NCBI GenBank assembly: GCA_964016885.1
Contig: OZ024743.1
Location: forward strand, 101,370,001-101,434,000
Direction: 5' to 3'
Origin: Eledone cirrhosa
Lineage: Eukaryota
DNA: 64,000 bases
Of the stretch, positions 22,363-62,850 are shown one piece after another (position 1 is the stretch's first letter; each line of letters starts with the position of its first letter). The notes below the pieces were generated by a model. That model saw nothing but the letters and a program-made list of their open reading frames with translations. It did not search any database and was not told the DNA's origin. The position numbers and the translations under genes are program-made.

Positions 22363-22509
22363 CGTTCCATGTTATGGAAAGAAGTTGTGGTGAATCTTTG
22401 GAATAGAGCTTAATAAATATTAATGGCCCTAATAGTTGTTCCAATGTTCAAACGTGGCCTGCCAATGGAACATGTCGCACACCCCTGAACTAAAGGAATA
22501 TAGTCTAAT

Positions 22510-36000: not shown

Positions 36001-39000
36001 GGAACAAACTACCTGCATCAGTTGTTAGCTGTCGAGACACTGCATAATTAAAAACCTCCATGGAACAAACTACCTGCATCAGTTGTTATGTGTCTAGACA
36101 CTGCATCCTTAAAACCTCCATGGAACAAACTACCTGCATCTGTTGTTAGCTGTTGAGACACTGCATACCTTAAAACCACCATGTAACAGACTACTTGCAT
36201 CAGTTGTTAGCTGTCGAATCACTGCATCCTTTAAAACCACCATGGAACAAACTACCTGCATCAGTTGGTAGCTGTCGAGACACTGCATCCTTTTAAACCA
36301 CAATGGAACAAACTACCTGCATCAGTTGTTAGCTGTCGGGATGCTGCATCCTTTTAAACCACCATGGAAGAAACTACCTGCATCAGCTGTAAGCTGTCAG
36401 GATGCTCCATCCTTTAAAACCTCCATGGAACAAACTTCCTGCATCAGTTGTTACCTGTCGAGACACTGCATCCTTTAAAACCTCCATTGAAGAAACTACC
36501 TGCATCAGTTGTTAGCTGTGAGACTGCTCCATCCTTTAAAACTTTTATGGAACAAACTACCTCCATCAGTTTTTACCTGTCGAGACACTGCATCCTTTAA
36601 AACTTTTATGGAACAAACTACCTGCATGAGTTGTTAGCTGTTGAGTCACTGCATCCTTTAAAACCTCCATGGAACAAACTACCTGCATCAGTTGTTAGTT
36701 GTCAAGACACTGCATCCTTAAAACCTCCATGGAACAATCTACCTGCACCAGTTGTTAGCTGTCGAGAGACTGCATCCTTTAAAACCTTCATGGAACAAAC
36801 TACCTGCATCAGTTGTCAGCTGTCGAGATACTGTATCCTTAAAACCTCCATGGAACAAATTACCTGCATCAATTGTTAGCTGTCGAGACCCTGCATCCTT
36901 TAAAACCAGCATGGAACAAACTACCTGCATCTGGTTTTAGCTGTCAAGACACTGCATCCTTTAAAATCTCCATGGATCAAACTACCGGCATCAGTTGTTA
37001 CCTGTCGAGATACTGCATCCTTTAAAACCTCCATGGAAGAAACTACATGCATCAGTTCTTAGTGTCAGGCTGCTCTATCCTTTAAAACCTCCATGGAACA
37101 AACTACCTGCATCAGTTTTTAGCTGTCGAGACACTGCATCCTTTAAAACCTCTATGGAACAAACTACCTGCATCAGTTGTTAGCTGTCGAGACACTGCAT
37201 CCTTTAAACCTTCAGGGAACAAACTACCTGCATCAGTTGTTACCTGTTGACACACTGCATCCTTTAAAACCACCATGGCACAAACTACCTGCATCAGTTG
37301 TTAGCTGTCGAGACACTGCATCGTTTAAAACCACCATGGAACAAACTACCTGCATCCGTTGTTAGCTGTCGAGACACTGCATCCTTTAAAACCACAATGG
37401 AACAAACTACCTGCATCAGTTGTTAGCTGTTGTGACACTGCATCCTTTAAAACCGCCATGGAACCAACTACCTGCATCAGTTGTTACCTGTCGAGACACT
37501 GCTCCTTTAAAACCTCCATGGAACAAACTACCTGCATCAGTTGTTAGCTGTCGAGACACTGCATCCTTTAAAACCACAATGGAACAAACTACCTGCATCA
37601 GTTGTTAGCTGTTGTGACACTGCATCCTTTAAAACCGCCATGGAACCAACTACCTGCATCAGTTGTTACCTGTCGAGACACTGCTCCTTTAACACCTCCA
37701 TGGAAGAAACTACCTGCATCAGTTGTTAGCTGTCGGCACGCTGCATCCTTTAAAACCACCATGGAAGAAACTACCTGCATCAGTTGTAAGCTGTCAGGAT
37801 GCTCCATCCTTTAAAACCTCCATGGAACAAACTACCTCCATCAGTTCTTAGCTGTTGATACACTGCATACTTTAAAACCACCATCGAACAAACTACCTGC
37901 ATCAGTTGTTAGCTGTCGAGACACTGCATCCTTTAAAACCTTCATGGAACAACTACCTGCATCTGCTGTTAGCTGTCGGGTTGTTGCATCCTTTAAAACC
38001 ACCATGGCACAAACTACCCGCATCAGTTGTTAGCTGTTGAGAAACTGCATCCTTTAAAACCTCCATGGAATCAACTACCTGTATCTGTTGTTAGCTGTCG
38101 AGACACTGCATCCTTTAAAATCTCCATGGATCAAACTACCTGCATCAGTTGTTAGCTGTTGACACACTGCATCCTTTAAAACCACCATGGAATAGACTAC
38201 CTGTCTCAGTTGTTACCTGTTGAGATACTGCATACTTTAAAACCTCCATGGATCAAACTACCTGTATCAGTTGTTATCTGTTGGGACACTGCATCCTTTA
38301 AAACCTCCGTGAAACAAACTATCTGTATCAGACGTTAACTGTTGAGACACTGCATCCTTTAAAACCACCATGGAAAAAACTACCTGCACCAGTTGTTAGC
38401 TGTCGAGACTCTGCATCCTTTAAAACCTCCATGGAACAAACTACCTGCATCAGTTGTTAGCTGTCGAGACACTGCATACTTAAAACCTCCATGGAACAAA
38501 CTACCTGCATCAGTTGTTATGTGTCTAGACACTGCATCCTTAAAATCTCCATGGAACAAACTACCTGCATCTGTTGTTAGCTGTCGAGACACTGCATCCC
38601 TTAAAACCACCATGTAACAAACTACTTGCATCAGTTGTTAGCTGTTGAGACACTGCATCCTTTAAAACCTCCGTGAAACAAACTGTCTGTATCAGACGTT
38701 AGCTGTTGAGACACTGCATCCTTTAAAACCACCATGGAAAAAACTACCTGCAACAGTTGTTAGCTGTCGAGACCCTGCATCCTTTAAAACTACAATGGAA
38801 CAAACTACCTGCATCAGTTGTAAGCTGTTGTGACACTGCATCCTTTAAAACCACCATGGAACCAACTACCTGCATCAGTTGTTACCTGTCGTCACACCGC
38901 TCCTTTAAAACCTCCATGGAACAAACTACCTGCATCAGTTGTTAGCTGTCGGGATGCTTAATCCTTTAAAACCACCATGGAAGAAACTACCTGCATCAGT

Positions 39001-42000
39001 TTTAAGCTGTCAGGATGCTCCATCCTTTAAAACCTCCATGGAAGAAACTACCTACATCAGTTCTTAGCTGTTGACACACTGCATCCTTTAAAACCACCAT
39101 GGAACAAACTACGTGCATCAGTTGTTAGCTGTCGAGTCCCTGCATTCTTTAAAACCTCCATGGAATCAACCACCTGTATCAGTTGTTAGCTGTCGAGACA
39201 CTGCATGCTTTAAAACTTCCATGGATCAAACTACTTGTATCAGTTGTTAGCTGTTGGGACACTGCATCCCTTAAAACCTCCATGAAACAAACTATCTGTA
39301 TCAGTCGTTAGCTGTTGAGACACTGCATCCTTTAAAACCACCATGGAACAAACTACCTGCATCAGTTGTTAGCTGTCGAGACTCTGCATCCTTTAAAACC
39401 TCCATGGAACAAACTACCTGCATCAGTTGTTAGCTGTCGAGACACTGCATACTTAAAACCTCCATGGAACAAACTACCTGCATCAGTTGTTATGTGTCTA
39501 GACACTGCATCCTTAAAACCTCCATGGAACAAACTACCTGCATCTGTTGTTAGCTGTCGAGACACTGCATCCCTTAAAACCACCATGTAACAAACTACTT
39601 GCATCAGTTGTTAGCTGTTGAGACACTGCACCCTTAAAACCTCCATGGAACAAACTACCTGCATCAGTTGTTAGCTGTCGAATCACTGCATCCTTTAAAA
39701 CCACCATGGAACAAACTACCTGCATCAGTTCTTAGCTGTCGCGATGCTGCATCCTTTTAAACCACCATGGAAGAAACTACCTGCATCAGTTGTAAGCTGT
39801 CAGGAAGCTCCATCCTTTAAAACCTCCATGGAATCAACCCCCTGCATCAGTTGTTAGCTGTCGAGACACTGCATAATTAAAAACCTCCATGGAACAAACT
39901 ACCTGCATCAGTTGTTATGTGTCTAGACACTGCATCCTTAAAACCTCCATGGAACAAACTACCTGCATCAGTTGTTAGCTGTCGAATCACTGCATCCTTT
40001 AAAACCACCATGGAACAAACTACCTGCATCAGTTGTTAGCTGGCAAGACTCTGCATCCTCGAAAACCTCCATGGAACAAACTACCTGCATCAGTTGTTAG
40101 CTGTCGAGTCATTGCATACTTAAAACCTCCATGGAACAAACTACCTGCATCAGTTGTTATGTGTCTAGACACTGCATCCTTAAAACCTCCATGGAACAAA
40201 CTATCTGCATCAGTTGTTAGCTGTCGAGACTCTGCATTCTTTAAAACCTCCATGGAACAAACTACCTGCATCAGTTGTTAGCTGTCGAGACACTGCATAA
40301 TTAAAAACCTCCATGGAACAAACTACCTGCATCAGTTGTTATGTGTCTAGACACTGCATCCTTAAAACCTCCATGGAACAAACTACCTGCATCTGTTGTT
40401 AGCTGTTGAGACACTGCATACCTTAAAACCACCATGTAACAGACTACTTGCATCAGTTGTTAGCTGTCGAATCACTGCATCCTTTAAAACCACCATGGAA
40501 CAAACTACCTGCATCAGTTGGTAGCTGTCGAGACACTACATCCTTTTAAACCACAATGGAACAAACTACCTGCATCAGTTGTTAGCTGTCGGGATGCTGC
40601 ATCCTTTTAAACCACCATGGAAGAAACTACCTGCATCAGCTGTAAGCTGTCAGGATGCTCCATCCTTTAAAACCTCCATGGAACAAACTTCCTGCATCAG
40701 TTGTTACCTGTCGAGACACTGCATCCTTTAAAACCTCCATTGAAGAAACTACCTGCATCAGTTGTTAGCTGTGAGACTGCTCCATCCTTTAAAACTTTTA
40801 TGGAACAAACTACCTCCATCAGTTTTTACCTGTCGAGACACTGCATCCTTTAAAACTTTTATGGAACAAACTACCTGCATGAGTTGTTAGCTGTTGAGTC
40901 ACTGCATCCTTTAAAACCTCCATGGAACAAACTACCTGCATCAGTTGTTAGTTGTCAAGACACTGCATCCTTAAAACCTCCATGGAACAATCTACCTGCA
41001 CCAGTTGTTAGCTGTCGAGAGACTGCATCCTTTAAAACCTTCATGGAACAAACTACCTGCATCAGTTGTCAGCTGTCGAGATACTGTATCCTTAAAACCT
41101 CCATGGAACAAATTACCTGCATCAATTGTTAGCTGTCGAGACCCTGCATCCTTTAAAACCAGCATGGAACAAACTACCTGCATCTGGTTTTAGCTGTCAA
41201 GACACTGCATCCTTTAAAATCTCCATGGATCAAACTACCGGCATCAGTTGTTAGCTGTTGGCACACTGCATCCTTTAAAACTTCCATGGAACAAACTTCC
41301 TGCATCAGTTGTTACCTGTCGAGATACTGCATCCTTTAAAACCTCCATGGAAGAAACTACATGCATCAGTTCTTAGTGTCAGGCTGCTCTATCCTTTAAA
41401 ACCTCCATGGAACAAACTACCTGCATCAGTTTTTAGCTGTCGAGACACTGCATCCTTTAAAACCTCTATGGAACAAACTACCTGCATCAGTTGTTAGCTG
41501 TCGAGACACTGCATCCTTTAAACCTTCAGGGAACAAACTACCTGCATCAGTTGTTACCTGTTGACACACTGCATCCTTTAAAACCACCATGGCACAAACT
41601 ACCTGCATCAGTTGTTAGCTGTCGAGACACTGCATCGTTTAAAACCACCATGGAACAAACTATCTGCATCAGTTGTTAGCTGTCGAGACCCAGCATCCTT
41701 TAAAACCACAATGGAACAAACTACCTGCATCAGTTGTTAGATGTCGGGACGCTGCATCCTTTAAAACCACCATGGAAGAAACTACCTGCGTCAGTTGTTA
41801 CCTGTCGAGACACTGCTCCTTTAAAACCTCCATGGAACAAAATACCTGCATCAGTTGTTAGCTGTTGTGACACTGCATCCTTTAAAACCACCATGGAACC
41901 AACTACCTGCATCAGTTGTTACCTGTCGAGACACTGCTCCTTTAAAACCTCCATGGAACAAACTACCTGCGTCAGTTGTTAGCTGTCGGCATGCTGCATC

Positions 42001-45000
42001 CTTTAAAACCACGATGGAAGAAACTACCTGCATCAGTTGTAAGCTGTCAGGATGCTCCATCCTTTAAAATATCCATGGAACAAACTACCTCCATCAGTTC
42101 TTAGCTGTTGACACACTGCATCCTTTAAAACCACCATGGAACAAACTACCTGCATCAGTTGTTAGCTGTCGAGACACTGCATCCTTTAAAACCTTCATGG
42201 AACAAACTACCTGCATCTGCTGCTAGCTGTCGGGATGCTGCATCCTTTAAAACCTTCATGGAACAAACTACCCGCATCAGTTGTTAGCTGTTGAGACACT
42301 GCATCCTTTAAAACCTCCAAGGAATCAACTACCTGTATCTATTGTTAGCTGTCGAGACACTGCATCCTTTAAAATCTCCATGGATCAAACTACCGGCATC
42401 AGTTGTTAGCTGTTGACACACTGCATCCTTTAAAACAACCATGGCACAAACTACCTACATCAGTTGTTAGCTGTTGAGACACTGCATCCTAAAAACCTCC
42501 ATGGAATAGACTACCTGTATCAGTTGTTACCTGTCGAGATACTGCATACTTTAAAATCTCCATGGATCCAACTACCTGTATCAGTCGTTAGCTGTTGAGA
42601 CACTGCATCCTTTAAAACCACCATGGAACAAACTACCTGCATCAGTTGTTAGCTGTCGAGACTCTGCATCCTTTAAAACCTCCATGGAACAAACTACCTG
42701 CATCAGTTGTTAGCTGTCGAGACACTGCATACTTAAAACCTCCATGGAACAAACTACCTGCATCAGTTGTTATGTGTCTAGACACTGCATCCTTAAAACC
42801 TCCATGGAACAAACTACCTGCATCTGTTGTTAGCTGTCGAGACACTGCATCCCTTAAAACCACCATGTAACAAACTACTTGCATCAGTTGTTAGCTGTTG
42901 AGACACTGCACCCTTAAAACCTCCATGGAACAAACTACCTGCATCAGTTGTTAGCTGTCGAATCACTGCATCCTTTAAAACCACCATGGAACAAACTACC
43001 TGCATCAGTTCTTAGCTGTCGCGATGCTGCATCCTTTTAAACCACCATGGAAGAAACTACCTGCATCAGTTGTAAGCTGTCAGGAAGCTCCATCCTTTAA
43101 AACCTCCATGGAATCAACCCCCTGCATCAGTTGTTAGCTGTCGAGACACTGCATAATTAAAAACCTCCATGGAACAAACTACCTGCATCAGTTGTTATGT
43201 GTCTAGACACTGCATCCTTAAAACCTCCATGGAACAAACTACCTGCATCAGTTGTTAGCTGTCGAATCACTGCATCCTTTAAAACCACCATGGAACAAAC
43301 TACCTGCATCAGTTGTTAGCTGGCAAGACTCTGCATCCTCGAAAACCTCCATGGAACAAACTACCTGCATCAGTTGTTAGCTGTCGAGTCATTGCATACT
43401 TAAAACCTCCATGGAACAAACTACCTGCATCAGTTGTTATGTGTCTAGACACTGCATCCTTAAAACCTCCATGGAACAAACTATCTGCATCAGTTGTTAG
43501 CTGTCGAGACTCTGCATTCTTTAAAACCTCCATGGAACAAACTACCTGCATCAGTTGTTAGCTGTCGAGACACTGCATAATTAAAAACCTCCATGGAACA
43601 AACTACCTGCATCAGTTGTTATGTGTCTAGACACTGCATCCTTAAAACCTCCATGGAACAAACTACCTGCATCTGTTGTTAGCTGTTGAGACACTGCATA
43701 CCTTAAAACCACCATGTAACAGACTACTTGCATCAGTTGTTAGCTGTCGAATCACTGCATCCTTTAAAACCACCATGGAACAAACTACCTGCATCAGTTG
43801 GTAGCTGTCGAGACACTACATCCTTTTAAACCACAATGGAACAAACTACCTGCATCAGTTGTTAGCTGTCGGGATGCTGCATCCTTTTAAACCACCATGG
43901 AAGAAACTACCTGCATCAGCTGTAAGCTGTCAGGATGCTCCATCCTTTAAAACCTCCATGGAACAAACTTCCTGCATCAGTTGTTACCTGTCGAGACACT
44001 GCATCCTTTAAAACCTCCATTGAAGAAACTACCTGCATCAGTTGTTAGCTGTGAGACTGCTCCATCCTTTAAAACTTTTATGGAACAAACTACCTCCATC
44101 AGTTTTTACCTGTCGAGACACTGCATCCTTTAAAACTTTTATGGAACAAACTACCTGCATGAGTTGTTAGCTGTTGAGTCACTGCATCCTTTAAAACCTC
44201 CATGGAACAAACTACCTGCATCAGTTGTTAGTTGTCAAGACACTGCATCCTTAAAACCTCCATGGAACAATCTACCTGCACCAGTTGTTAGCTGTCGAGA
44301 GACTGCATCCTTTAAAACCTTCATGGAACAAACTACCTGCATCAGTTGTCAGCTGTCGAGATACTGTATCCTTAAAACCTCCATGGAACAAATTACCTGC
44401 ATCAATTGTTAGCTGTCGAGACCCTGCATCCTTTAAAACCAGCATGGAACAAACTACCTGCATCTGGTTTTAGCTGTCAAGACACTGCATCCTTTAAAAT
44501 CTCCATGGATCAAACTACCGGCATCAGTTGTTAGCTGTTGGCACACTGCATCCTTTAAAACTTCCATGGAACAAACTTCCTGCATCAGTTGTTACCTGTC
44601 GAGATACTGCATCCTTTAAAACCTCCATGGAAGAAACTACATGCATCAGTTCTTAGTGTCAGGCTGCTCTATCCTTTAAAACCTCCATGGAACAAACTAC
44701 CTGCATCAGTTTTTAGCTGTCGAGACACTGCATCCTTTAAAACCTCTATGGAACAAACTACCTGCATCAGTTGTTAGCTGTCGAGACACTGCATCCTTTA
44801 AACCTTCAGGGAACAAACTACCTGCATCAGTTGTTACCTGTTGACACACTGCATCCTTTAAAACCACCATGGCACAAACTACCTGCATCAGTTGTTAGCT
44901 GTCGAGACACTGCATCGTTTAAAACCACCATGGAACAAACTATCTGCATCAGTTGTTAGCTGTCGAGACCCAGCATCCTTTAAAACCACAATGGAACAAA

Positions 45001-48000
45001 CTACCTGCATCAGTTGTTAGATGTCGGGACGCTGCATCCTTTAAAACCACCATGGAAGAAACTACCTGCGTCAGTTGTTACCTGTCGAGACACTGCTCCT
45101 TTAAAACCTCCATGGAACAAAATACCTGCATCAGTTGTTAGCTGTTGTGACACTGCATCCTTTAAAACCACCATGGAACCAACTACCTGCATCAGTTGTT
45201 ACCTGTCGAGACACTGCTCCTTTAAAACCTCCATGGAACAAACTACCTGCGTCAGTTGTTAGCTGTCGGCATGCTGCATCCTTTAAAACCACGATGGAAG
45301 AAACTACCTGCATCAGTTGTAAGCTGTCAGGATGCTCCATCCTTTAAAATATCCATGGAACAAACTACCTCCATCAGTTCTTAGCTGTTGACACACTGCA
45401 TCCTTTAAAACCACCATGGAACAAACTACCTGCATCAGTTGTTAGCTGTCGAGACACTGCATCCTTTAAAACCTTCATGGAACAAACTACCTGCATCTGC
45501 TGCTAGCTGTCGGGATGCTGCATCCTTTAAAACCTTCATGGAACAAACTACCCGCATCAGTTGTTAGCTGTTGAGACACTGCATCCTTTAAAACCTCCAA
45601 GGAATCAACTACCTGTATCTATTGTTAGCTGTCGAGACACTGCATCCTTTAAAATCTCCATGGATCAAACTACCGGCATCAGTTGTTAGCTGTTGACACA
45701 CTGCATCCTTTAAAACAACCATGGCACAAACTACCTACATCAGTTGTTAGCTGTTGAGACACTGCATCCTAAAAACCTCCATGGAATAGACTACCTGTAT
45801 CAGTTGTTACCTGTCGAGATACTGCATACTTTAAAATCTCCATGGATCCAACTACCTGTATCAGTTGTTAGCTGTTGGGACACTGCATCCTTTAAAACCT
45901 CCGTGAAACAAACTATCTGTATCAGTCGCTAGCTGTTGAGACACTGCATCCTTTAAAACCTCCATGGAACAAACTACCTGCATCAGTTGTTAGCTGTCGA
46001 ATCACTGCATCCTTTAAAACCACCATGGAACAAACTACCTGCATCAGTTGTTAGCTGGCAAGACTCTGCATCCTCTAAAACCTCCATGGAACAAACTACC
46101 TGCATCAGTTGTTAGCTGTCGAGACACTGCATAATTAAAAACCTCCATGGAACAAACTACCTGCATCAGTTGTTATGTGTCTAGACACTGCATCCTTAAA
46201 ACCTCCATGGAACAAACTACCTGCATCAGTTGTTAGCTGTCGAATCACTGCATCCTTTAAAACCACCATGGAACAAACTACCTGCATCAGTTGTTAGCTG
46301 GCAAGACTCTGCATCCTCTAAAACCTCCATGGAACAAACTACCTGCATCAGTTGTTAGCTGTCGAGTCATTGCATACTTAAAACCTCCATGGAACAAACT
46401 ACCTGCATCAGTTGTTATGTGTCTAGACACTGCATCCTTAAAACCTCCATGGAACAAACTATCTGCATCAGTTGTTAGCTGTCGAGACTCTGCATTCTTT
46501 AAAACCTCCATGGAACAAACTACCTGCATCAGTTGTTAGCTGTCGAGACACTGCATAATTAAAAACCTCCATGGAACAAACTACCTGCATCAGTTGTTAT
46601 GTGTCTAGACACTGCATCCTTAAAACCTCCATGGAACAAACTACCTGCATCTGTTGTTAGCTGTTGAGACACTGCATACCTTAAAACCACCATGTAACAG
46701 ACTACTTGCATCAGTTGTTAGCTGTCGAATCACTGCATCCTTTAAAACCACCATGGAACAAACTACCTGCATCAGTTGGTAGCTGTCGAGACACTACATC
46801 CTTTTAAACCACAATGGAACAAACTACCTGCATCAGTTGTTAGCTGTCGGGATGCTGCATCCTTTTAAACCACCATGGAAGAAACTACCTGCATCAGCTG
46901 TAAGCTGTCAGGATGCTCCATCCTTTAAAACCTCCATGGAACAAACTTCCTGCATCAGTTGTTACCTGTCGAGACACTGCATCCTTTAAAACCTCCATTG
47001 AAGAAACTACCTGCATCAGTTGTTAGCTGTGAGACTGCTCCATCCTTTAAAACTTTTATGGAACAAACTACCTCCATCAGTTTTTACCTGTCGAGACACT
47101 GCATCCTTTAAAACTTTTATGGAACAAACTACCTGCATGAGTTGTTAGCTGTTGAGTCACTGCATCCTTTAAAACCTCCATGGAACAAACTACCTGCATC
47201 AGTTGTTAGTTGTCAAGACACTGCATCCTTAAAACCTCCATGGAACAATCTACCTGCACCAGTTGTTAGCTGTCGAGAGACTGCATCCTTTAAAACCTTC
47301 ATGGAACAAACTACCTGCATCAGTTGTCAGCTGTCGAGATACTGTATCCTTAAAACCTCCATGGAACAAATTACCTGCATCAATTGTTAGCTGTCGAGAC
47401 CCTGCATCCTTTAAAACCAGCATGGAACAAACTACCTGCATCTGGTTTTAGCTGTCAAGACACTGCATCCTTTAAAATCTCCATGGATCAAACTACCGGC
47501 ATCAGTTGTTAGCTGTTGGCACACTGCATCCTTTAAAACTTCCATGGAACAAACTTCCTGCATCAGTTGTTACCTGTCGAGATACTGCATCCTTTAAAAC
47601 CTCCATGGAAGAAACTACATGCATCAGTTCTTAGTGTCAGGCTGCTCTATCCTTTAAAACCTCCATGGAACAAACTACCTGCATCAGTTTTTAGCTGTCG
47701 AGACACTGCATCCTTTAAAACCTCTATGGAACAAACTACCTGCATCAGTTGTTAGCTGTCGAGACACTGCATCCTTTAAACCTTCAGGGAACAAACTACC
47801 TGCATCAGTTGTTACCTGTTGACACACTGCATCCTTTAAAACCACCATGGCACAAACTACCTGCATCAGTTGTTAGCTGTCGAGACACTGCATCGTTTAA
47901 AACCACCATGGAACAAACTATCTGCATCAGTTGTTAGCTGTCGAGACCCAGCATCCTTTAAAACCACAATGGAACAAACTACCTGCATCAGTTGTTAGAT

Positions 48001-51000
48001 GTCGGGACGCTGCATCCTTTAAAACCACCATGGAAGAAACTACCTGCGTCAGTTGTTACCTGTCGAGACACTGCTCCTTTAAAACCTCCATGGAACAAAA
48101 TACCTGCATCAGTTGTTAGCTGTTGTGACACTGCATCCTTTAAAACCACCATGGAACCAACTACCTGCATCAGTTGTTACCTGTCGAGACACTGCTCCTT
48201 TAAAACCTCCATGGAACAAACTACCTGCGTCAGTTGTTAGCTGTCGGCATGCTGCATCCTTTAAAACCACGATGGAAGAAACTACCTGCATCAGTTGTAA
48301 GCTGTCAGGATGCTCCATCCTTTAAAATATCCATGGAACAAACTACCTCCATCAGTTCTTAGCTGTTGACACACTGCATCCTTTAAAACCACCATGGAAC
48401 AAACTACCTGCATCAGTTGTTAGCTGTCGAGACACTGCATCCTTTAAAACCTTCATGGAACAAACTACCTGCATCTGCTGCTAGCTGTCGGGATGCTGCA
48501 TCCTTTAAAACCTTCATGGAACAAACTACCCGCATCAGTTGTTAGCTGTTGAGACACTGCATCCTTTAAAACCTCCAAGGAATCAACTACCTGTATCTAT
48601 TGTTAGCTGTCGAGACACTGCATCCTTTAAAATCTCCATGGATCAAACTACCGGCATCAGTTGTTAGCTGTTGACACACTGCATCCTTTAAAACAACCAT
48701 GGCACAAACTACCTACATCAGTTGTTAGCTGTTGAGACACTGCATCCTAAAAACCTCCATGGAATAGACTACCTGTATCAGTTGTTACCTGTCGAGATAC
48801 TGCATACTTTAAAATCTCCATGGATCCAACTACCTGTATCAGTTGTTAGCTGTTGGGACACTGCATCCTTTAAAACCTCCGTGAAACAAACTATCTGTAT
48901 CAGTCGCTAGCTGTTGAGACACTGCATCCTTTAAAACCTCCATGGAACAAACTACCTGCATCAGTTGTTAGCTGTCGAATCACTGCATCCTTTAAAACCA
49001 CCATGGAACAAACTACCTGCATCAGTTGTTAGCTGGCAAGACTCTGCATCCTCTAAAACCTCCATGGAACAAACTACCTGCATCAGTTGTTAGCTGTCGA
49101 GACACTGCATAATTAAAAACCTCCATGGAACAAACTACCTGCATCAGTTGTTATGTGTCTAGACACTGCATCCTTAAAACCTCCATGGAACAAACTACCT
49201 GCATCAGTTGTTAGCTGTCGAATCACTGCATCCTTTAAAACCACCATGGAACAAACTACCTGCATCAGTTGTTAGCTGGCAAGACTCTGCATCCTCTAAA
49301 ACCTCCATGGAACAAACTACCTGCATCAGTTGTTAGCTGTCGAGTCATTGCATACTTAAAACCTCCATGGAACAAACTACCTGCATCAGTTGTTATGTGT
49401 CTAGACACTGCATCCTTAAAACCTCCATGGAACAAACTATCTGCATCAGTTGTTAGCTGTCGAGACTCTGCATTCTTTAAAACCTCCATGGAACAAACTA
49501 CCTGCATCAGTTGTTAGCTGTCGAGACACTGCATAATTAAAAACCTCCATGGAACAAACTACCTGCATCAGTTGTTATGTGTCTAGACACTGCATCCTTA
49601 AAACCTCCATGGAACAAACTACCTGCATCTGTTGTTAGCTGTTGAGACACTGCATACCTTAAAACCACCATGTAACAGACTACTTGCATCAGTTGTTAGC
49701 TGTCGAATCACTGCATCCTTTAAAACCACCATGGAACAAACTACCTGCATCAGTTGGTAGCTGTCGAGACACTGCATCCTTTTAAACCACAATGGAACAA
49801 ACTACCTGCATCAGTTGTTAGCTGTCGGGATGCTGCATCCTTTTAAACCACCATGGAAGAAACTACCTGCATCAGCTGTAAGCTGTCAGGATGCTCCATC
49901 CTTCAAAACCTCCATGGAACAAACTACCTGCATCAGTTGTTAGCTGTCGGGACGATGCATCTTTTAAAACCACCATGGAAGAAACTACCTGCATCAGTTT
50001 TAAGCTGTCAGGATGCTCCATCCTTTAAACCCTCCATGGAACAAACTACCTACATCAGTTCTTAGCTGTTGACACACTGCATCCTTTAAAACCACCATGG
50101 AACAAACTACCTGCATCAGTTGTTAGCTGTCGAGACACTGCATCCTTTAAAACCACCATGGAACAAACTACCTGCATCAGTTGTTAGCTGTCGAGACACT
50201 GCATCCTTTAAAACCACCATGGAACAAACTACCTGCATCAGTTGTTAGCTGTCGAGACACTGCATCCTTTAAAACCACAATGGAACAAACTACCTGCATC
50301 AGTTGTTAGCTGTTGTGACACTGCATCCTTTAAAACCGCCATGGAACCAACTACCTGCATCAGTTGTTACCTGTCGAGACACTGCTCCTTTAAAACCTCC
50401 ATGGAACAAACTACCTGCATCAGTTGTTAGCTGTTGTGACACTGCATCCTTTAAAACCGCCATGGAACCAACTACCTGCATCAGTTGTTACCTGTCGAGA
50501 CACTGCTCCTTTAACACCTCCATGGAAGAAACTACCTGCATCAGTTGTTAGCTGTCGGCACGCTGCATCCTTTAAAACCACCATGGAAGAAACTACCTGC
50601 ATCAGTTGTAAGCTGTCAGGATGCTCCATCCTTTAAAACCTCCATGGAACAAACTACCTCCATCAGTTCTTAGCTGTTGATACACTGCATACTTTAAAAC
50701 CACCATCGAACAAACTACCTGCATCAGTTGTTAGCTGTCGAGACACTGCATCCTTTAAAACCTTCATGGAACAACTACCTGCATCTGCTGTTAGCTGTCG
50801 GGTTGTTGCATCCTTTAAAACCACCATGGCACAAACTACCCGCATCAGTTGTTAGCTGTTGAGAAACTGCATCCTTTAAAACCTCCATGGAATCAACTAC
50901 CTGTATCTGTTGTTAGCTGTCGAGACACTGCATCCTTTAAAATCTCCATGGATCAAACTACCTGCATCAGTTGTTAGCTGTTGACACACTGCATCCTTTA

Positions 51001-54000
51001 AAACCACCATGGAATAGACTACCTGTCTCAGTTGTTACCTGTTGAGATACTGCATACTTTAAAACCTCCATGGATCAAACTACCTGTATCAGTTGTTATC
51101 TGTTGGGACACTGCATCCTTTAAAACCTCCGTGAAACAAACTATCTGTATCAGACGTTAACTGTTGAGACACTGCATCCTTTAAAACCACCATGGAAAAA
51201 ACTACCTGCACCAGTTGTTAGCTGTCGAGACTCTGCATCCTTTAAAACCTCCATGGAACAAACTACCTGCATCAGTTGTTAGCTGTCGAGACACTGCATA
51301 CTTAAAACCTCCATGGAACAAACTACCTGCATCAGTTGTTATGTGTCTAGACACTGCATCCTTAAAATCTCCATGGAACAAACTACCTGCATCTGTTGTT
51401 AGCTGTCGAGACACTGCATCCCTTAAAACCACCATGTAACAAACTACTTGCATCAGTTGTTAGCTGTTGAGACACTGCATCCTTTAAAACCTCCGTGAAA
51501 CAAACTGTCTGTATCAGACGTTAGCTGTTGAGACACTGCATCCTTTAAAACCACCATGGAAAAAACTACCTGCAACAGTTGTTAGCTGTCGAGACCCTGC
51601 ATCCTTTAAAACTACAATGGAACAAACTACCTGCATCAGTTGTAAGCTGTTGTGACACTGCATCCTTTAAAACCACCATGGAACCAACTACCTGCATCAG
51701 TTGTTACCTGTCGTCACACCGCTCCTTTAAAACCTCCATGGAACAAACTACCTGCATCAGTTGTTAGCTGTCGGGACGCTTAATCCTTTAAAACCACCAT
51801 GGAAGAAACTACCTGCATCAGTTTTAAGCTGTCAGGATGCTCCATCCTTTAAAACCTCCATGGAAGAAACTACCTACATCAGTTCTTAGCTGTTGACACA
51901 CTGCATCCTTTAAAACCACCATGGAACAAACTACGTGCATCAGTTGTTAGCTGTCGAGTCCCTGCATTCTTTAAAACCTCCATGGAATCAACCACCTGTA
52001 TCAGTTGTTAGCTGTCGAGACACTGCATGCTTTACAACTTCCATGGATCAAACTACTTGTATCAGTTGTTAGCTGTTGGGACACTGCATCCCTTAAAACC
52101 TCCATGAAACAAACTATCTGTATCAGTCGTTAGCTGTTGAGACACTGCATCCTTTAAAACCACCATGGAACAAACTACCTGCATCAGTTGTTAGCTGTCG
52201 AGACTCTGCATCCTTTAAAACCTCCATGGAACAAACTACCTGCATCAGTTGTTAGCTGTCGAGACACTGCATACTTAAAACCTCCATGGAACAAACTACC
52301 TGCATCAGTTGTTATGTGTCTAGACACTGCATCCTTAAAACCTCCATGGAACAAACTACCTGCATCTGTTGTTAGCTGTCGAGACACTGCATCCCTTAAA
52401 ACCACCATGTAACAAACTACTTGCATCAGTTGTTAGCTGTTGAGACACTGCACCCTTAAAACCTCCATGGAACAAACTACCTGCATCAGTTGTTAGCTGT
52501 CGAATCACTGCATCCTTTAAAACCACCATGGAACAAACTACCTGCATCAGTTCTTAGCTGTCGCGATGCTGCATCCTTTTAAACCACCATGGAAGAAACT
52601 ACCTGCATCAGTTGTAAGCTGTCAGGAAGCTCCATCCTTTAAAACCTCCATGGAATCAACCCCCTGTATCAGTTGTTAGCTGTCGAGACCCTGCATTCTT
52701 TAAAACCTCCATGGAACAAACTACCTGTATCAGTTGTTATCTGTTGGCACACTGCATCCTTTAAAACCTCCATGAAACAAACTATCCGTATCAGTTGTTA
52801 GCTGTTGAGACACTGCATCCTTTAAAACCACCATGGAACAAACTACCTGCATCAGTTGTTATGTGTCTAGACACTGCATCCTTAAAACCTCCATGGAACA
52901 AACTATCTGCATCAGTTGTTAGCTGTCGAGACTCTGCATTCTTTAAAACCTCCATGGAACAAACTACCTGCATCAGTTGTTAGCTGTCGAGACACTGCAT
53001 AATTAAAAACCTCCATGGAACAAACTACCTGCATCAGTTGTTATGTGTCTAGACACTGCATCCTTAAAACCTCCATGGAACAAACTACCTGCATCAGTTG
53101 TTAGCTGTCGAATCACTGCATCCTTTAAAACCACCATGGAACAAACTACCTGCATCAGTTGTTAGCTGGCAAGACTCTGCATCCTCTAAAACCTCCATGG
53201 AACAAACTACCTGCATCAGTTGTTAGCTGTCGAGTCATTGCATACTTAAAACCTCCATGGAACAAACTACCTGCATCAGTTGTTATGTGTCTAGACACTG
53301 CATCCTTAAAACCTCCATGGAACAAACTATCTGCATCAGTTGTTAGCTGTCGAGACTCTGCATTCTTTAAAACCTCCATGGAACAAACTACCTGCATCAG
53401 TTGTTATGTGTCTAGACACTGCATCCTTAAAACCTCCATGGAACAAACTACCTGCATCTGTTGTTAGCTGTTGAGACACTGCATACCTTAAAACCACCAT
53501 GTAACAGACTACTTGCATCAGTTGTTAGCTGTCGAATCACTGCATCCTTTAAAACCACCATGGAACAAACTACCTGCATCAGTTGGTAGCTGTCGAGACA
53601 CTGCATCCTTTTAAACCACAATGGAACAAACTACCTGCATCAGCTGTAAGCTGTCAGGATGCTCCATCCTTTAAAACCTCCATGGAACAAACTACCTGCA
53701 TCAGTTGTTAGCTGTCGGGACGATGCATCTTTTAAAACCACCATGGAAGAAACTACCTGCATCAGTTTTAAGCTGTCAGGATGCTCCATCCTTTAAACCC
53801 TCCATGGAACAAACTACCTACATCAGTTCTTAGCTGTTGACACACTGCATCCTTTAAAACCACCATGGAACAAACTACCTGCATCAGTTGTTAGCTGTCG
53901 AGACACTGCATCCTTTAAAACCACAATGGAAGAAACTACCTGCATCAGTTGTTAGCTGTTGTGACACTGCATCCTTTAAAACCGCCATGGAACCAACTAC

Positions 54001-57000
54001 CTGCATCAGTTGTTACCTGTCGAGACACTGCTCCTTTAAAACCTCCATGGAACAAACTACCTGCATCAGTTGTTAGCTGTTGTGACACTGCATCCTTTAA
54101 AACCGCCATGGAACCAACTACCTGCATCAGTTGTTACCTGTCGAGACACTGCTCCTTTAAAACCTCCATGGAACAAACTACCTGCATCAGTTGTTAGCTG
54201 TCGAGACACTGCATCCTTTAAAACCACAATGGAACAAACTACCTGCATCAGTTGTTAGCTGTTGTGACACTGCATCCTTTAAAACCGCCATGGAACCAAC
54301 TACCTGCATCAGTTGTTACCTGTCGAGACACTGCTCCTTTAACACCTCCATGGAAGAAACTACCTGCATCAGTTGTTAGCTGTCGGCACGCTGCATCCTT
54401 TAAAACCACCATGGAAGAAACTACCTGCATCAGTTGTAAGCTGTCAGGATGCTCCATCCTTTAAAACCTCCATGGAACAAACTACCTCCATCAGTTCTTA
54501 GCTGTTGATACACTGCATACTTTAAAACCACCATCGAACAAACTACCTGCATCAGTTGTTAGCTGTCGAGACACTGCATCCTTTAAAACCTTCATGGAAC
54601 AACTACCTGCATCTGCTGTTAGCTGTCGGGTTGTTGCATCCTTTAAAACCACCATGGCACAAACTACCCGCATCAGTTGTTAGCTGTTGAGAAACTGCAT
54701 CCTTTAAAACCTCCATGGAATCAACTACCTGTATCTGTTGTTAGCTGTCGAGACACTGCATCCTTTAAAATCTCCATGGATCAAACTACCTGCATCAGTT
54801 GTTAGCTGTTGACACACTGCATCCTTTAAAACCACCATGGAATAGACTACCTGTCTCAGTTGTTACCTGTTGAGATACTGCATACTTTAAAACCTCCATG
54901 GATCAAACTACCTGTATCAGTTGTTATCTGTTGGGACACTGCATCCTTTAAAACCTCCGTGAAACAAACTATCTGTATCAGACGTTAACTGTTGAGACAC
55001 TGCATCCTTTAAAACCACCATGGAAAAAACTACCTGCACCAGTTGTTAGCTGTCGAGACTCTGCATCCTTTAAAACCTCCATGGAACAAACTACCTGCAT
55101 CAGTTGTTAGCTGTCGAGACACTGCATACTTAAAACCTCCATGGAACAAACTACCTGCATCAGTTGTTATGTGTCTAGACACTGCATCCTTAAAATCTCC
55201 ATGGAACAAACTACCTGCATCTGTTGTTAGCTGTCGAGACACTGCATCCCTTAAAACCACCATGTAACAAACTACTTGCATCAGTTGTTAGCTGTTGAGA
55301 CACTGCATCCTTTAAAACCTCCGTGAAACAAACTGTCTGTATCAGACGTTAGCTGTTGAGACACTGCATCCTTTAAAACCACCATGGAAAAAACTACCTG
55401 CAACAGTTGTTAGCTGTCGAGACCCTGCATCCTTTAAAACTACAATGGAACAAACTACCTGCATCAGTTGTAAGCTGTTGTGACACTGCATCCTTTAAAA
55501 CCACCATGGAACCAACTACCTGCATCAGTTGTTACCTGTCGTCACACCGCTCCTTTAAAACCTCCATGGAACAAACTACCTGCATCAGTTGTTAGCTGTC
55601 GGGACGCTTAATCCTTTAAAACCACCATGGAAGAAACTACCTGCATCAGTTTTAAGCTGTCAGGATGCTCCATCCTTTAAAACCTCCATGGAAGAAACTA
55701 CCTACATCAGTTCTTAGCTGTTGACACACTGCATCCTTTAAAACCACCATGGAACAAACTACGTGCATCAGTTGTTAGCTGTCGAGTCCCTGCATTCTTT
55801 AAAACCTCCATGGAATCAACCACCTGTATCAGTTGTTAGCTGTCGAGACACTGCATGCTTTAAAACTTCCATGGATCAAACTACTTGTATCAGTTGTTAG
55901 CTGTTGGGACACTGCATCCCTTAAAACCTCCATGAAACAAACTATCTGTATCAGTCGTTAGCTGTTGAGACACTGCATCCTTTAAAACCACCATGGAACA
56001 AACTACCTGCATCAGTTGTTAGCTGTCGAGACTCTGCATCCTTTAAAACCTCCATGGAACAAACTACCTGCATCAGTTGTTAGCTGTCGAGACACTGCAT
56101 ACTTAAAACCTCCATGGAACAAACTACCTGCATCAGTTGTTATGTGTCTAGACACTGCATCCTTAAAACCTCCATGGAACAAACTACCTGCATCTGTTGT
56201 TAGCTGTCGAGACACTGCATCCCTTAAAACCACCATGTAACAAACTACTTGCATCAGTTGTTAGCTGTTGAGACACTGCACCCTTAAAACCTCCATGGAA
56301 CAAACTACCTGCATCAGTTGTTAGCTGTCGAATCACTGCATCCTTTAAAACCACCATGGAACAAACTACCTGCATCAGTTCTTAGCTGTCGCGATGCTGC
56401 ATCCTTTTAAACCACCATGGAAGAAACTACCTGCATCAGTTGTAAGCTGTCAGGAAGCTCCATCCTTTAAAACCTCCATGGAATCAACCCCCTGTATCAG
56501 TTGTTAGCTGTCGAGACCCTGCATTCTTTAAAACCTCCATGGAACAAACTACCTGTATCAGTTGTTATCTGTTGGCACACTGCATCCTTTAAAACCTCCA
56601 TGAAACAAACTATCCGTATCAGTTGTTAGCTGTTGAGACACTGCATCCTTTAAAACCACCATGGAACAAACTACCTGCATCAGTTGTTATCTGTCGAGAC
56701 CCTGCATTCTTTAAAACCTCCATGTAACAAACTACCTGCATCAGTTGTTAGCTGTCGAGACCCTGCATCCTTTAAAACCTCCATGGAACAAACTACCTGC
56801 ATCAGTTGTTAGCTGTCGAGACCCTGCATCCTTTAAAACGTCCATGGAACAAACTGTAGCGGTTGTCTCCCTTGTTTGGATTAACATCTGGACGGGAAGT
56901 GGAACCCTTTCTGTAACTTCCGGCAGAGCCCTATAATACGAACAACTTTAAGTTCTCACTCTCTCATTGCCCTTTCGTCACCAGGCCAAGAGCCTCTCAT

Positions 57001-57211
57001 TTGCCTTCCGGCGCCTGGCCTTAGCCAGGCGTCCTCTGCCAGCCGCGTTTGCCTGGCAATCAAAACGGTAACGACTAACTTTGTTTCATTCTATCATCTA
57101 TTTCTTTGACATTTCAACTATACTATCTACCATTGTTAATTAAATATTATACACACAAACCATGCCTCGTTTTGTTACCTTCATGCAACCCAGTCGTATC
57201 ATTGCTATAAG

Positions 57212-57223
57212 TGGTCACCCCGA
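57212..57223 (+). other. Primer binding site, tRNA-Trp-like
   Basis: TGGTCACCCCGA, 2 nt after the LTR end; one mismatch to the recalled tRNA-Trp PBS TGGTGACCCCGA. Confidence 0.65.
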
Positions 57224-58042
57224 AAAAAGAAAAAGATAGCAGATTCTGGAGTTGTGTGGGTAACATTGCGAATACACAGCAAATTTATCGACAAACTATG
57301 AAAATACTCAAAGAAACGGTAACACGCACATGTGGAATTCGCGTTCAGACAGACTTTTTCTCTCACGCATCAACTAACTGTCACATTTCACGATATATAT
57401 TCTCGTTTCTTACAACGAACACTTTCAAAACAAAAATAAAATAAAAAACATTTCACGATATATATATATGTTTCTCGTTTCTTACAACGAACTCTTTCAA
57501 AACAAAAAAAAAAAAGAAATTTGATATTCTTTAAAAAACATTTCAACAGGAACATTTATTTTCGATGAACCATTGCCTTTTTTTTCATCGTTTTCTTCAT
57601 CGTTCAAGTTTTTTTTCCAAAGTTCACACCAATAATTATGCTGAGTGAAGCCTTTCTTTTTCATCATTGTCACTTTCTCGCGCGTTAGAAATATTATTTT
57701 TTCAACCTTGTATTGGCACGTGTAGGCAGCACAAATTCTCGACTCACAGAGATAGCCGCACGCCAGAGATAACGTTTCTCGCCAAGGATTCTTCAGCCTT
57801 AAGCTATATTCTCCTATTTGCCGGTTTAAAAATTTACTACGTAAATTTGCCGTTGAAAACTGCGCATTTATTCAGAATGCTTATTTCTTTGGTCGCTGGC
57901 CTCTTGACCCTTCCAGGTCAACGCATTCTCAACATCGACCATCAACTTCGGCTGCTATTTCTAGCACTTTGCGCAACTCATTTTTTCTGAAAAAAATTTT
58001 TTTCACTGTGAATTTAAACACCGAATACGCTCACTCAGCGAG

Positions 58043-58270
58043 ACAACAGCAGCAGCAACAGCAACAGCAATATAACAGCAACAGCAGCAGCAACAGCAAC
58101 AGCAATATAACAGCAACAGCAATACAGCAGCAACAGCAATACAGCAGCAACAGTAGCAGCAACACCAACAGCAGCAGCAACAGCAACAGCAATATAACAG
58201 CAACAGCAATACAGCAGCAACAGCAATACAGCAGCAGCAGCAGCAACAGCAACAGCAATACATCAACACA
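58043..58270. repeat. (CAG/CAA) compound trinucleotide tract within the LTR element
   Basis: CAGCAGCAACAGCAAC runs with internal block duplication. Confidence 0.9.
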
Positions 58271-58748
58271 GCTTCACCAACAACCAAAGCCAGAGAATTT
58301 ATTTTTGCAGCACTCTTCCTGTGAGAAAATCCATTCGGAGGTTGTAAATTTCACGATATACCACAGAACAGAAACCACCTGCATTCATTCTCTGGAACAC
58401 ACTTTCTTTCCTGCTGTCATGTGATTACACACCTGTGAACTATATTTTGTACATTTGAACTTTGAGCCCTTCTCTTACTTTATTACATTGTATCTTTGGG
58501 TGATGGATAGATAGTCGTTCTCTGGCCAAGAGCGGTTGGCTACCTTGATATCTATCATTGATTTTTGCAAATATTCTTTTGTCGTAATTTTCATGCCTGT
58601 TACAACATTCTCGCCAACTTGCTACATATTTTCATTCGATTTTTATATCCTAAAATTCTGGCGGGAGGTTATGTAGCGGTTGTCTCCCTTGTTTGGATTA
58701 ACATCTGGACGGGAAGTGGAACCCTTTCTGTAACTTCCGGCAGAGCCC

Positions 58749-58755
58749 TATAAAA
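58749..58755 (+). promoter_or_regulatory. LTR TATA box (TATAAAA; TATAATA in the 5' LTR at 56932)
   Basis: About 78 nt into the LTR; ATTAAA poly(A)-like signal lies about 285 nt into the LTR. Confidence 0.45.
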
Positions 58756-60872
58756 CGAACAACTTTAAGTTCTCACTCTCTCATTGCCCTTTCGGCACCA
58801 GGCCAAGAGCCTCTCATTTGCCTTCCGGCGCCTGGCCTTAGCCAGGCGTCCTCTGCCAGCCGCGTTTGCCTGGCAATCAAAACGGTAACGACTAACTTTG
58901 TTTCATTCTATCATCTATTTCTTTGACATTTCAACTATACTATCTACCATTGTTAATTAAACATTATCTACACAACCCAATGTATTCCTGCGTTACATTC
59001 ATATAGCGAAGATACTGGGTTGTATGAATGTAACGCAGGAATACATTGGGTTGTGTAGATAATGTTTAATTAACAATGGTAGATAGTATAGTTGAAATGT
59101 CAAAGAAATAGATGATAGAATGAAACAAAGTTAGTCGTTACCGTTTTGATTGCCAGGCAAACGCGGCTGGCAGAGGACGCCTGGCTAAGGCCAGGCGCCG
59201 GAAGGCAAATGAGAGGCTCTTGGCCTGGTGCCGAAAGGGCAATGAGAGAGTGAGAACTTAAAGTTGTTCGTTTTATAGGGCTCTGCCGGAAGTTACAGAA
59301 AGGGTTCCACTTCCCGTCCAGATGTTAATCCAAACAAGGGAGACAACCGCTACAAAACTACCTGCATCAGTTGTTAGCTGTCGAGACACTGCATCCTTTA
59401 AAACCTCCATGGAATAGACTACCTGTATCAGTTGTTACCTGCCGAGACACTGCATTCTTTAAAACCTCCATGGATCAAACTACCTGTATCAGTTGTTATC
59501 TGTTGGGACACTGCATCCTTTAAAACCTCCATGAAACAAACTATCTGTATCAGTTGTTAGCTGTTGAGACACTGCATCCTTTAAAACCACCATGGAACAA
59601 ACTACCTGTATCAGTTGTTAGCTCTCGAGACACTGCATACTTAAAACCTCCATGGAACAAACTACCTGCATCAGTTGTTAGCTGTCGAGACACTGCATCC
59701 TTTAAAACCACCATGGAAGAAACTACCTGCATCAGTTGTAAGCTGTCAGGATGCTCCATCCTTTAAAACCTCCATGGAACAAAGTACCTGCATCAATTGT
59801 TAGCTGTTGAGACACTGCATCCTTAAAACCTCCATGGAACAAACTACCTGCATCAGTTGTTAGCTGTCGAGACACTGCATCCTTTAAAACCACCATGGAA
59901 CACACTACCTGCATCAGTTGTTAGCTGTCGAGACCCTGCATCCTTTAAAACCACCATGGAAGAAACTACCTGCATCAGTTGTAAGCTGTCAGGATGCTCC
60001 ATCCTTTAAAACCTCCATGGAACAAAGTACCTGCATCAGTTGTTAGCTGTTGTGACACTGCATCCTTTAAAACCACCATGGCACAAACTACCTGCATCAG
60101 TTGTTAGCTGTTGAGACACTGCATCCTTTAAAACTTCCATGGAATCAACTACCTGTATCAGTTGTTAGCTGTCGAGACACTGCATCCTTTAAAACCACCA
60201 TGGAAGAAACTACCTGCATCAGTTGTTAGCTGTCGAGACCCTGCATCCTTTAAAACCGCCATGGAAGAAACTACCTGCATCAGTTGTTAGCTGTCGAGAC
60301 CCTGCATCCTTTAAAACCGCCATGAAACAAACTATCCGTATCAGTTGTTAGCTGTCGAGACCCTGCATCCTTTAAAACCTCCATGGAACAAACTACCTGC
60401 ATCAGTTGTTAGCTGTCGAGACCCTGCATCCTTTAAAACCTCCATGGAACAAACTACCTGCATCAGTTGTTAGCTGTCGAGACCCTGCATCCTTTAAAAC
60501 CTCCATGGAACAAACTACCTGCATCAGCTGTAATGTGTCGAGACACTGCATCTTTTAAAACTACCATGAAACAAACTACCTGCATCTGCTGTTAGCTGTC
60601 CAGACACTGCATCCTTTAAAACCTCCATGGAACAAACTACCTGCATCTGTTGTTAGCTGTCGAGACACTGCATCCTTTAAAACCACCATGTAACAAACTA
60701 CCTGCATCAGTCGTTAGCTGTCGAGACACTGCATCTTTTAAAACCACCATGGAACAAAGTACCTGCATCAATTGTTAGCTGTTGACACACTGCATCCTTT
60801 AAAACCACCCTGGAACAAACTACCTGCATCTGCTGTTAGCTGTCCAGACACTGTATCCTTTAAAACCTCCAT

Positions 60873-61699: not shown

Positions 61700-62425
61700 A
61701 TAAGACACAGAGCCACCTAGGGTACAGATCTCAGTGAGATACCCAGCTACCTAGGATACAGAACTTAGAGAGACACAGAACCACCTAGGGTACATAACTT
61801 AGAGAGGCACAGAGCCACCTAGGGTACAGAACTTAGAGAGACACAGAGCCACCTAGGGTACAGATCTCAGTGAGATACCCAGCCACCTAGGGTACAGACT
61901 TTAGAGGGACACAGAGTTACCTAGGGTACAGAACTTAGAGAAACACAGAGCTACCTAGGGTACAGACCTCAGAGAGACACAGAGCCACCTAGGGTACAGA
62001 CCTTAGAGAGACACAGAGCCACCTAGGGGACATCCTGACACAGATCCGCCTAGGGTACAGACCTCAGAGAGACACAGAGCCACCTAGGGAACAGACCTCA
62101 GGGAGACACAGAGTCACCCAGGGGACAGATCTCAGTGAGATACACAGCTACCTAGGGTACAGACCTTAGAGAGACACAGAGCCACCTAGGGTAGTACAGA
62201 CCTTAGAGAGACACAGAGCCACCTAGGGTACAGACCTTAGAGAGACACAGAGCCACCTAGAGTACATACCTCAGGGAGACATAGAGCCACCTAGGGTACA
62301 GAACTTAGAGAGACACAGAGCCAACTAGGGTACAGACTTTAGAGAGACACAGAGCCACCTAGGGTACAGACCTCAGGGAGACATAGAGCCACCTAGGGTA
62401 CAGAGAGACAGACAACCAGCTAGAG
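61700..62425. repeat. 34-bp minisatellite, about 21 copies
   Basis: Unit AGAGCCACCTAGGGTACAGACCTTAGAGAGACAC. Confidence 0.93.
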
Positions 62426-62584
62426 TACAGACATCAGATTGGTACATTACTGAACCTTAAAGTATCACAGTTTTATACAGGGCTGGTGCTACCATTAAGG
62501 CCAACTAGGGTACATTGCAGAACCTTAAGGACATACTTAGTTCCTCTACAACAATATAATATACACATTACCTAGTCTGGTATT

Positions 62585-62850
62585 ATGAAGGCCCTGAACA
62601 AGGATGTTAAAGCTACACATAATACACAGTGGTGTTAGGAAGGCTCAGAACAAGGAGGATGTTAAAAGCTACACTTAATACACAGTGTTGTTAGGAAGGC
62701 CCAGAACAAGGATATCAAAATCTACACTTAGTATACAGTGGTGTTAGGAAGGCCCAGAACAAGGATGTTAAAATCTACACTCAGTACATAGTAATGTTAG
62801 GAAGGCCCTGAACAAGGATATCCAAATCTACACTTAGTACACAGTGGTGG
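62585..62850. repeat. About 53-bp tandem repeat, about 5 copies
   Basis: Unit AGGAAGGCCCAGAACAAGGATGTTAAAATCTACACTTAGTACACAGTGGTGTT. Confidence 0.88.

Follow-up and report, generated by a model that had tools for sequence, protein, structure and literature searches.

How does a long terminal repeat (LTR) retrotransposon come to lie in a genome with a U3 end at each of its borders? The question is raised by a locus in a 64,000-nucleotide stretch of Eledone cirrhosa DNA (contig OZ024743.1 of assembly GCA_964016885.1, positions 101,370,001 to 101,434,000, forward strand), the whole of which is referred to here as the window. Sequence comparison across the window delimits a 2500-bp unit at 56855-59354, set within an array of a 61-bp satellite, and the comparison supports the view that this unit went in as a single insertion, with a U3 end at either border and one 4-bp target site duplication (TSD) around it. 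The insertion is aberrant but well preserved, and it belongs to an abundant gypsy family that is non-autonomous and resembles the CsRn1 clade. We think it somewhat probable that a single faulty complementary DNA (cDNA) was inserted here, its U5 end likely having been swapped for a second U3 end during reverse transcription.

Architecture of the insertion

The unit begins with a 355-bp 5' LTR on the plus strand (A1, 56855..57209), which runs from TGTAGC to GCTATA and carries a U5 designated variant a. TATAA occurs at LTR position 78 and ATTAAA at position 285, and the limits of U3, R and U5 were placed by reference to these motifs. An AG spacer and a tRNA-Trp-type primer binding site (PBS), TGGTCACCCCGA, follow on the same strand (57210..57223, with the PBS at 57212-57223). 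The plus-strand interior (57224..58659, approximately 1.4 kb) is non-coding as judged by open reading frame (ORF) and Pfam scans and a motif search; a 72-bp stretch within it is duplicated (57383-57513), and a CAACAG microsatellite lies at 58044-58262. No Pfam match reached the cut-off in the 14 of 38 listed ORFs that were scanned. Three Pfam matches at E values of 0.017-0.059, with a single 48-aa AT-rich ORF, were dismissed as noise. A polypurine tract (PPT), GGCGGGAGG (58660-58668), and a TTA spacer (together 58660..58671, plus strand) precede the 3' LTR, so that direct LTRs, a PBS and a PPT surround a non-coding interior, as in other non-autonomous LTR elements.

The 3' LTR (A2, 58672..59003, plus strand) retains the ATTAAA signal and carries a second U5, variant b, but ends at position 332 of 353, 21 nt short of completion. 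There it meets A3, a complete inverted LTR of 353 bp on the minus strand (59002..59354), in a U5-U5 junction with a TA overlap at 59002..59003; the 19 nt at 59004-59022 form an unpaired loop between the two arms. The inner end of A3 is the exact LTR end and its outer end the exact LTR start. The plus-strand AAAC duplication lies outside the whole unit, at 56851..56854 on the left and 59355..59358 on the right. Both outer junctions consequently read TGTAGC, both complete LTRs, A1 and A3, finish in GCTATA, and the outer ends of the unit are 290-bp near-perfect inverted repeats starting TGTAG. The initial annotation had described this succession of LTR, PBS, non-coding interior, PPT, cut LTR and inverted LTR, together with the two kinds of terminus and an AAAC duplication in phase with the satellite; our analysis agrees with it at every coordinate. 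No further copy of the LTR is present in the window, which includes 34 kb of the array and is free of Ns. Insertion of a second element into A2 was rejected on finding neither a remainder of A2 nor a matching duplication to the right of A3.

The satellite array and the single duplication

The satellite extends over 24082..56854 to the left of the insert (plus strand, 539 monomers, with higher-order duplications of several kb) and resumes on the same strand and in the same phase at 59355..60872. Counts of satellite 10-mers were 62 plus and 0 minus on the left, and 14 plus and 0 minus on the right. Of the 563 monomers in the array, 193 are distinct, and long blocks that are nearly identical recur within it at distances of 49, 54, 63 and 103 monomers. 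The higher-order block stops three monomers to the left of the insert rather than at the insert itself, and a different edge domain begins at that point: the three intervening monomers resemble the right-hand domain, and the monomer at 56733 is identical to two monomers on the right.

These observations bear on whether two elements could have been inserted independently, in opposite orientations but in matching monomer phase, and then have lost the sequence that separated them, in which case the satellite flank would merely give the appearance of a TSD. Such an origin would be eased by the fact that 479 of the 563 monomers end in AAAC and by the great abundance of the family, and no empty-site copy of the flanks of the insert was found in the array. 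However, two unrelated insertions would match in phase by chance only about once in 61, given no target preference, and the deletion would have had to halt exactly at an LTR end. The array, moreover, contains no other LTR, the break in the higher-order block lies away from the insert, and there is no difference between A2 and A3, in a family whose copies are mostly less than 99% alike. We therefore regard two insertions as very unlikely. Additional minisatellites, with periods of 40, 55, 34 and 53 bp, flank the main array at 20506-22366 and 61703-62849.

Comparison of the three LTRs

Pairwise comparison, which formed no part of the initial annotation, revealed that all 332 of 332 nt agree between A2 and A3. 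In A1 the first 290 nt depart from that shared sequence at two sites, yet beyond the ATTAAA signal only 47 of 66 columns match. The 5' LTR is thus a different U5 on a nearly identical U3-R, and the two U5 variants, for all their divergence, both terminate in GCTATA. At six of six LTR sites, chosen where sequencing runs mostly or often differ, A1, A2 and A3 carry the same letter, which fits derivation from one parent lineage. That the arms do not differ at all (upper 95% bound 0.9%) suggests, on sequence grounds, either a recent event or homogenised arms; the contrast in apparent age between A2-A3 (no differences) and A1-A2 (2/290) is not significant (P approximately 0.10). At 58978-59000, and mirrored in A3, U5 variant b contains a 6-bp inverted repeat just ahead of the cut at position 332; its weak predicted fold (-1.7 kcal/mol) could be a pause site.

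One explanation that is constrained by this pattern is that two linear cDNAs were end-joined U5 to U5 at TA and inserted through their outer U3 ends, the second element later being reduced to a solo LTR. The joined molecule would give the same TSD and the intact inner LTR end, and the TA microhomology with a loss of 21 nt is reminiscent of end-joining. Nevertheless this path needs three rare steps and predicts that A1 should equal A2, whereas it is A2 and A3 that are identical and A1 that differs; we consider it quite improbable.

TA termini and affinity to the CsRn1 clade

From the GCTATA termini the initial annotation had concluded that the U5 end was defective for integration and that the inverted LTR rescued it by supplying a second usable end. 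The termini of CsRn1-clade Ty3/gypsy elements are, however, TGT...ATA or TGT...AAA; these elements have a tRNA-Trp PBS with the motif TGGTGA(G/C)CCCG(T/A) and generate 4-bp TSDs, for which no target preference is reported (PMC2582038). A Trp primer site and a typical 4-bp TSD are also given in PMC3630058. Here A1 and A3 both have TGT...ATA termini, the PBS agrees with the clade motif at 11 of 12 positions, and AAAC is found at both ends, at this single locus inside a satellite. As in CsRn1, PwRn1 and AgCR1-14, a PPT stands ahead of the 3' LTR, and the LTR length falls within the 146-383 bp of the clade members among the rows listed in PMC2582038. Since all three features, the TGT...ATA ends, the Trp PBS and the 4-bp TSDs, have been published for the clade, the U5 end has not been demonstrated to be defective. 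Neither a defect nor a rescue finds support, given that TA ends are normal in the clade, that both U5 variants end in GCTATA and that the family is very abundant. An indirect and weak estimate of where the family LTR ends, based on bin depth, put it at 24.0-24.7 of 27 positions in four of five estimates and at 22.5 in the fifth, the expectation being 24 for a TA end and 22 for a CA end.

The element differs from members of the clade in its extra inverted LTR, in its unequal U5 parts and in the lack of gag and pol, which makes placement by protein sequence impossible. The Gag CHCC and integrase GPY/F motifs of the clade are absent from the six frames of the interior, as is CCHC. Because the element is non-coding, with none of these motifs and no Pfam match at the cut-off, it is best described from its sequence as CsRn1-like and is not assigned as a member of the clade.

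Abundance of the family and rarity of the junction

Thirteen sequencing runs were listed, with a best word share of 0.43, and four of these (X1, X4, X5 and X11) were compared over 58270-59060; runs X2, X3, X6-X10, X12 and X13 fall outside the comparison, and A1, the PBS and most of the interior fall outside the compared stretch. None of the runs listed was an RNA run holding the sequence. Organism A is possibly only a relative of the species of the window (word share 0.43, with near-fixed differences). In it the LTR and the 3' interior are very high-copy, the summed contig depth, which is not a copy number, being mostly 5,000-85,000 in X1; across the runs, family copies are mostly less than 99% alike. 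The same LTR family, with its interior, also occurs in organism B (runs X4 and X5). An X4 contig (record 11) passes from the interior through the PPT into the LTR, and in an X5 record the LTR start lies next to an unrelated microsatellite, from which it follows that ordinary copies of the family exist. The family copies in X4 and X5 depart sharply from this copy beyond LTR position ~300, and U5 seems to be the most variable part of the LTR family.

Many dispersed copies of LTR and interior, as indicated by the X1 depth and by the X5 LTR beside a microsatellite, are a further mark of a non-autonomous LTR element. The order LTR, PBS, non-coding interior, PPT and LTR, the high copy number and the need for a helper are shared with elements of the terminal-repeat retrotransposon in miniature (TRIM) and large retrotransposon derivative (LARD) types, and animal Helenus TRIMs likewise generate 4-bp TSDs (PMC10886601). 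In contrast to TRIM and LARD elements, the present one has a 1.4-kb interior, no Rfam match to tRNA or 5S in its LTR, and a third, inverted LTR.

If all copies had the inverted layout, depth just inside the junction should be about half that of the LTR-end bin. The observed values were 1.4 against 216 in the raw reads of X11 (0.6%) and 347 against 9726 in X1 (3.6%), both ratios being upper bounds. Since these lie far below one half, the inverted layout is not typical of the family; the depths argue against it as the usual form, and the junction would appear to be rare or absent in organism A. No strand-change joint was found among the four joints listed. Four metagenome-contig loci that match the first 20 LTR bases were set aside as chance matches of 20-23 nt in GC-rich DNA.

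The initial annotation had also raised the prospect of a family that converts its LTRs into terminal inverted repeats (TIRs), that is, of a subfamily that moves whole through its two TGTAGC ends in the manner of a TIR transposon, using an integrase-related transposase. Ginger elements encode a transposase, have TGTNR ends and make 4-bp TSDs, with CCGG/CCGT as the targets of Ginger1 and RTATAY as that of Ginger2 (PMC2836005). The 290-bp near-perfect terminal inverted repeats of the unit, the fit of TGTAG to TGTNR and the 4-bp TSD are all features held in common with Ginger1 and Ginger2. Against this, the target here is AAAC and neither CCGG/CCGT nor RTATAY, the PBS and PPT are retained, one copy is known, and none of the 14 of 38 listed ORFs that were scanned matched a Gypsy-integrase-like transposase. 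The low junction depth lends no support to further copies sharing these ends, an RNA copy should be unable to pass the layout on, the perfect 332-bp palindrome suggests a recent event, and the need for rescue of a defective U5 has gone. Conversion of this kind is therefore unsupported, and a mobile TIR unit is highly improbable. It is equally hard to credit that the locus represents a gypsy-derived subfamily whose LTRs have turned into TIRs, a living step from an LTR retrotransposon to a Ginger-like cut-and-paste element.

Origin of the inverted LTR

A rare fold-back product of reverse transcription, already suggested in the initial annotation, stands as the likeliest origin. PPT-primed plus-strand LTR DNA (U3, R and U5 variant b, with GCTATA at its 3' end) would fold back at its own position 331-332; alternatively, a displacing plus strand could make a U-turn, using the displaced plus-strand LTR product as template. 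Both routes would yield LTR(1-332) followed by the reverse of LTR(353-1). The fold-back molecule would lack the tRNA-derived PBS copy at this end, and the LTR on the left would be supplied by the plus strand of another genome packaged in the same particle; this would account for the U5 variant a of A1. The integrase of a helper element would then process the two U3 ends and insert both in concert. LTR elements co-package two RNAs and undergo intermolecular transfers (PMC6894440), and in vitro several reverse transcriptases, that of Tf1 among them, can prime when 2 nt are paired at the 3' end (PMC3035444). On its minus strand the locus reads as a complete plus-sense LTR, a TA joint, and a minus-sense copy that proceeds from LTR position 330 by way of the PPT, the interior and the PBS to A1. 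Three breakpoints coincide with natural retroelement DNA ends, namely the LTR start twice at the outer borders and the LTR end once at the inner one. Breakpoints at natural ends, a single in-phase TSD, the identity of A2 and A3, and the differing U5 of A1 together support insertion of a faulty cDNA.

Like the aberrant products described in PMC12657518 and PMC3035444, the locus, as read here, would be a case in which wrong strand transfers have left legible scars in integrated copies. Aberrant plus-strand transfers are known from HIV-1 proviruses (PMC12657518), although those described are deletions and tRNA inserts, and the accessible part of that paper mentions no inversion. An LTR-interior-LTR unit with an inverted LTR inside one TSD was not described in the titles and abstract openings of the literature searched, which covered few subscription papers.

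The host could also have produced the inversion. A normal TG...TA element would have been inserted, and two template switches (type 3-1-2-4) in the course of host replication or gap repair would have followed: copying would leave at LTR position 332 for the LTR end on the opposite strand, pass through the LTR and return by way of the LTR's own imperfect terminal repeat. The product of such events is precisely an inverted repeat whose spacer is inverted as well (PMC5453318), and host routes to inverted duplications in general are known (PMC10766186, PMC10622511). The original TSD would be preserved, the presence of no differences between A2 and A3 beside 2/290 between A1 and A2 would be accounted for, and the return could be steered by the likeness of the LTR start to the LTR end in reverse (6/7 nt) or of the reversed PPT to the right flank (7/11 nt). 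However, the first switch must hit the exact LTR end with only TA as a guide, although there are eight TA sites in the last 60 nt; the 353-nt copied tract is long beside the short events of PMC5453318; and the different U5 of A1 is left unexplained, while the age contrast that would favour this path falls short of significance. We consider a host template switch unlikely, though less so than joined cDNAs.

Several points weigh against a faulty cDNA. The final sequence is the same under a host template switch, and only population alleles separate the two. The first plus-strand product of retroviruses normally extends past U5 with a copy of the PBS. An end exactly at GCTATA would accordingly require a later round of synthesis or trimming by integrase. 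Yeast Ty elements undergo repeated rounds of plus-strand strong-stop synthesis. The 2-nt clamp requires at least one C or G (PMC3035444), and the TA here has neither. The join of the two satellite flanks did not outscore shifted or random ones (for example 17 against a random median of 14, k=2), because the flanks belong to the edge domain and are single-copy in the window. In X4 the junction depth was 21.4 against 48.3 for the LTR end (44%), an ambiguous value that is uninformative because contigs coming from the left may end in that bin, and X5 has no depth there. Restriction site-associated DNA (RAD) reads cover few loci, and a low-copy junction may exist. Finally, no piece spans the junction among the 24 pieces listed (614 pieces and 171 loose-end rows lie beyond these), an observation that also speaks for an artefact of assembly or of chimeric reads. 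Palindromes and satellites are prone to such errors. A fold-back read should, however, mirror into the PPT and invert the flank, whereas here the mirror goes exactly as far as the LTR start and neither strand nor phase of the satellite changes; a simple fold-back read is ruled out by the retention of satellite strand on both sides, and we hold an artefact of any kind to be barely credible.

Other elements with inverted repeats

Penelope-like elements with an inverted pseudo-LTR carry a hammerhead ribozyme in the repeat and have neither a tRNA PBS nor a PPT. An assignment to this group was rejected on account of the PBS and PPT present here; no hammerhead was found among the Rfam matches at E values up to 1. 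At that threshold there were five Rfam matches, all to microRNA-hairpin models on the palindrome and all below the gathering score, which we regard as palindrome artefacts; no Rfam tRNA or 5S match was found in the LTR. DIRS1-type elements possess an internal complementary region (ICR), which complements the ends of the two LTRs, and a tyrosine recombinase (PMC7192593). The present unit is similar to the DIRS1 type in that its outer repeats point towards one another and one of them has its complement in an inner copy. However, A2 complements A3 lengthwise with no end-to-end junction, the unit is non-coding, and it has a PBS, a PPT and a 4-bp duplication; the exclusion of a DIRS-like element in the initial annotation holds, with no ICR, no recombinase and the duplication present. 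Troyka, with CG ends and a 3-bp TSD, was likewise rejected; it shows that terminal letters can differ between lineages (PMC12440569).

Consequences of the inverted layout

A2 retains its polyadenylation signal, and an RNA copy would run from the R of A1 to the R of A2, so that the layout should not be heritable by retrotransposition. The inverted layout is a predicted dead end, the RNA between these R regions being expected to yield ordinary TG...TA daughters. For the unit to move whole, a cut-and-paste enzyme would be required, and there is no sign of one. Were the unit mobile, conversion of LTRs into TIRs would be demonstrated, a far weightier result, but the evidence points against it.

Read-through from A3, or beyond the polyadenylation signal of A2, would give an RNA with a 332-bp perfect hairpin, which could feed silencing RNA against this abundant family; the junction RNA is predicted to fold into a perfect hairpin at -168.5 kcal/mol for 227 nt. 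A broader possibility, that gypsy reverse transcription regularly yields two-U3 insertions as a by-product and that their hairpins seed small-RNA silencing of the family, is conceivable but doubtful. As read here, the locus is the fossil of an error in reverse transcription. It suggests that a gypsy integrase is able to insert DNA with two U3 ends in the germ line of an animal, and that a single insertion may draw its two LTRs from two templates. Both points are relevant to models of plus-strand transfer and to LTR dating, which takes the LTRs to be identical at insertion.

Neighbouring elements in the window

The window contains several other mobile element remnants, which by themselves suggest an animal host, probably an invertebrate one. 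The 3' part of another gypsy-type element occupies positions 1-2170 and includes a disrupted pol in which RNase H-like and integrase domains are recognisable, a PPT and a 3' LTR; it shows no resemblance to the LTR described above. Long ORFs with a weak RVT_1 match at 3154-5236 appear to encode a Penelope-type reverse transcriptase. Decayed copies of long interspersed nuclear elements (LINEs), which we take to be RTE-like, are found at 6963-8947, 12636-14135 and 18111-19420; the one that was scanned has RVT_1 and a PHD-finger match inside an ORF. Two related minus-strand fragments at 14587-14988 and 20940-21389 appear to us to resemble the end of a non-LTR element that carries the restriction-like endonuclease.

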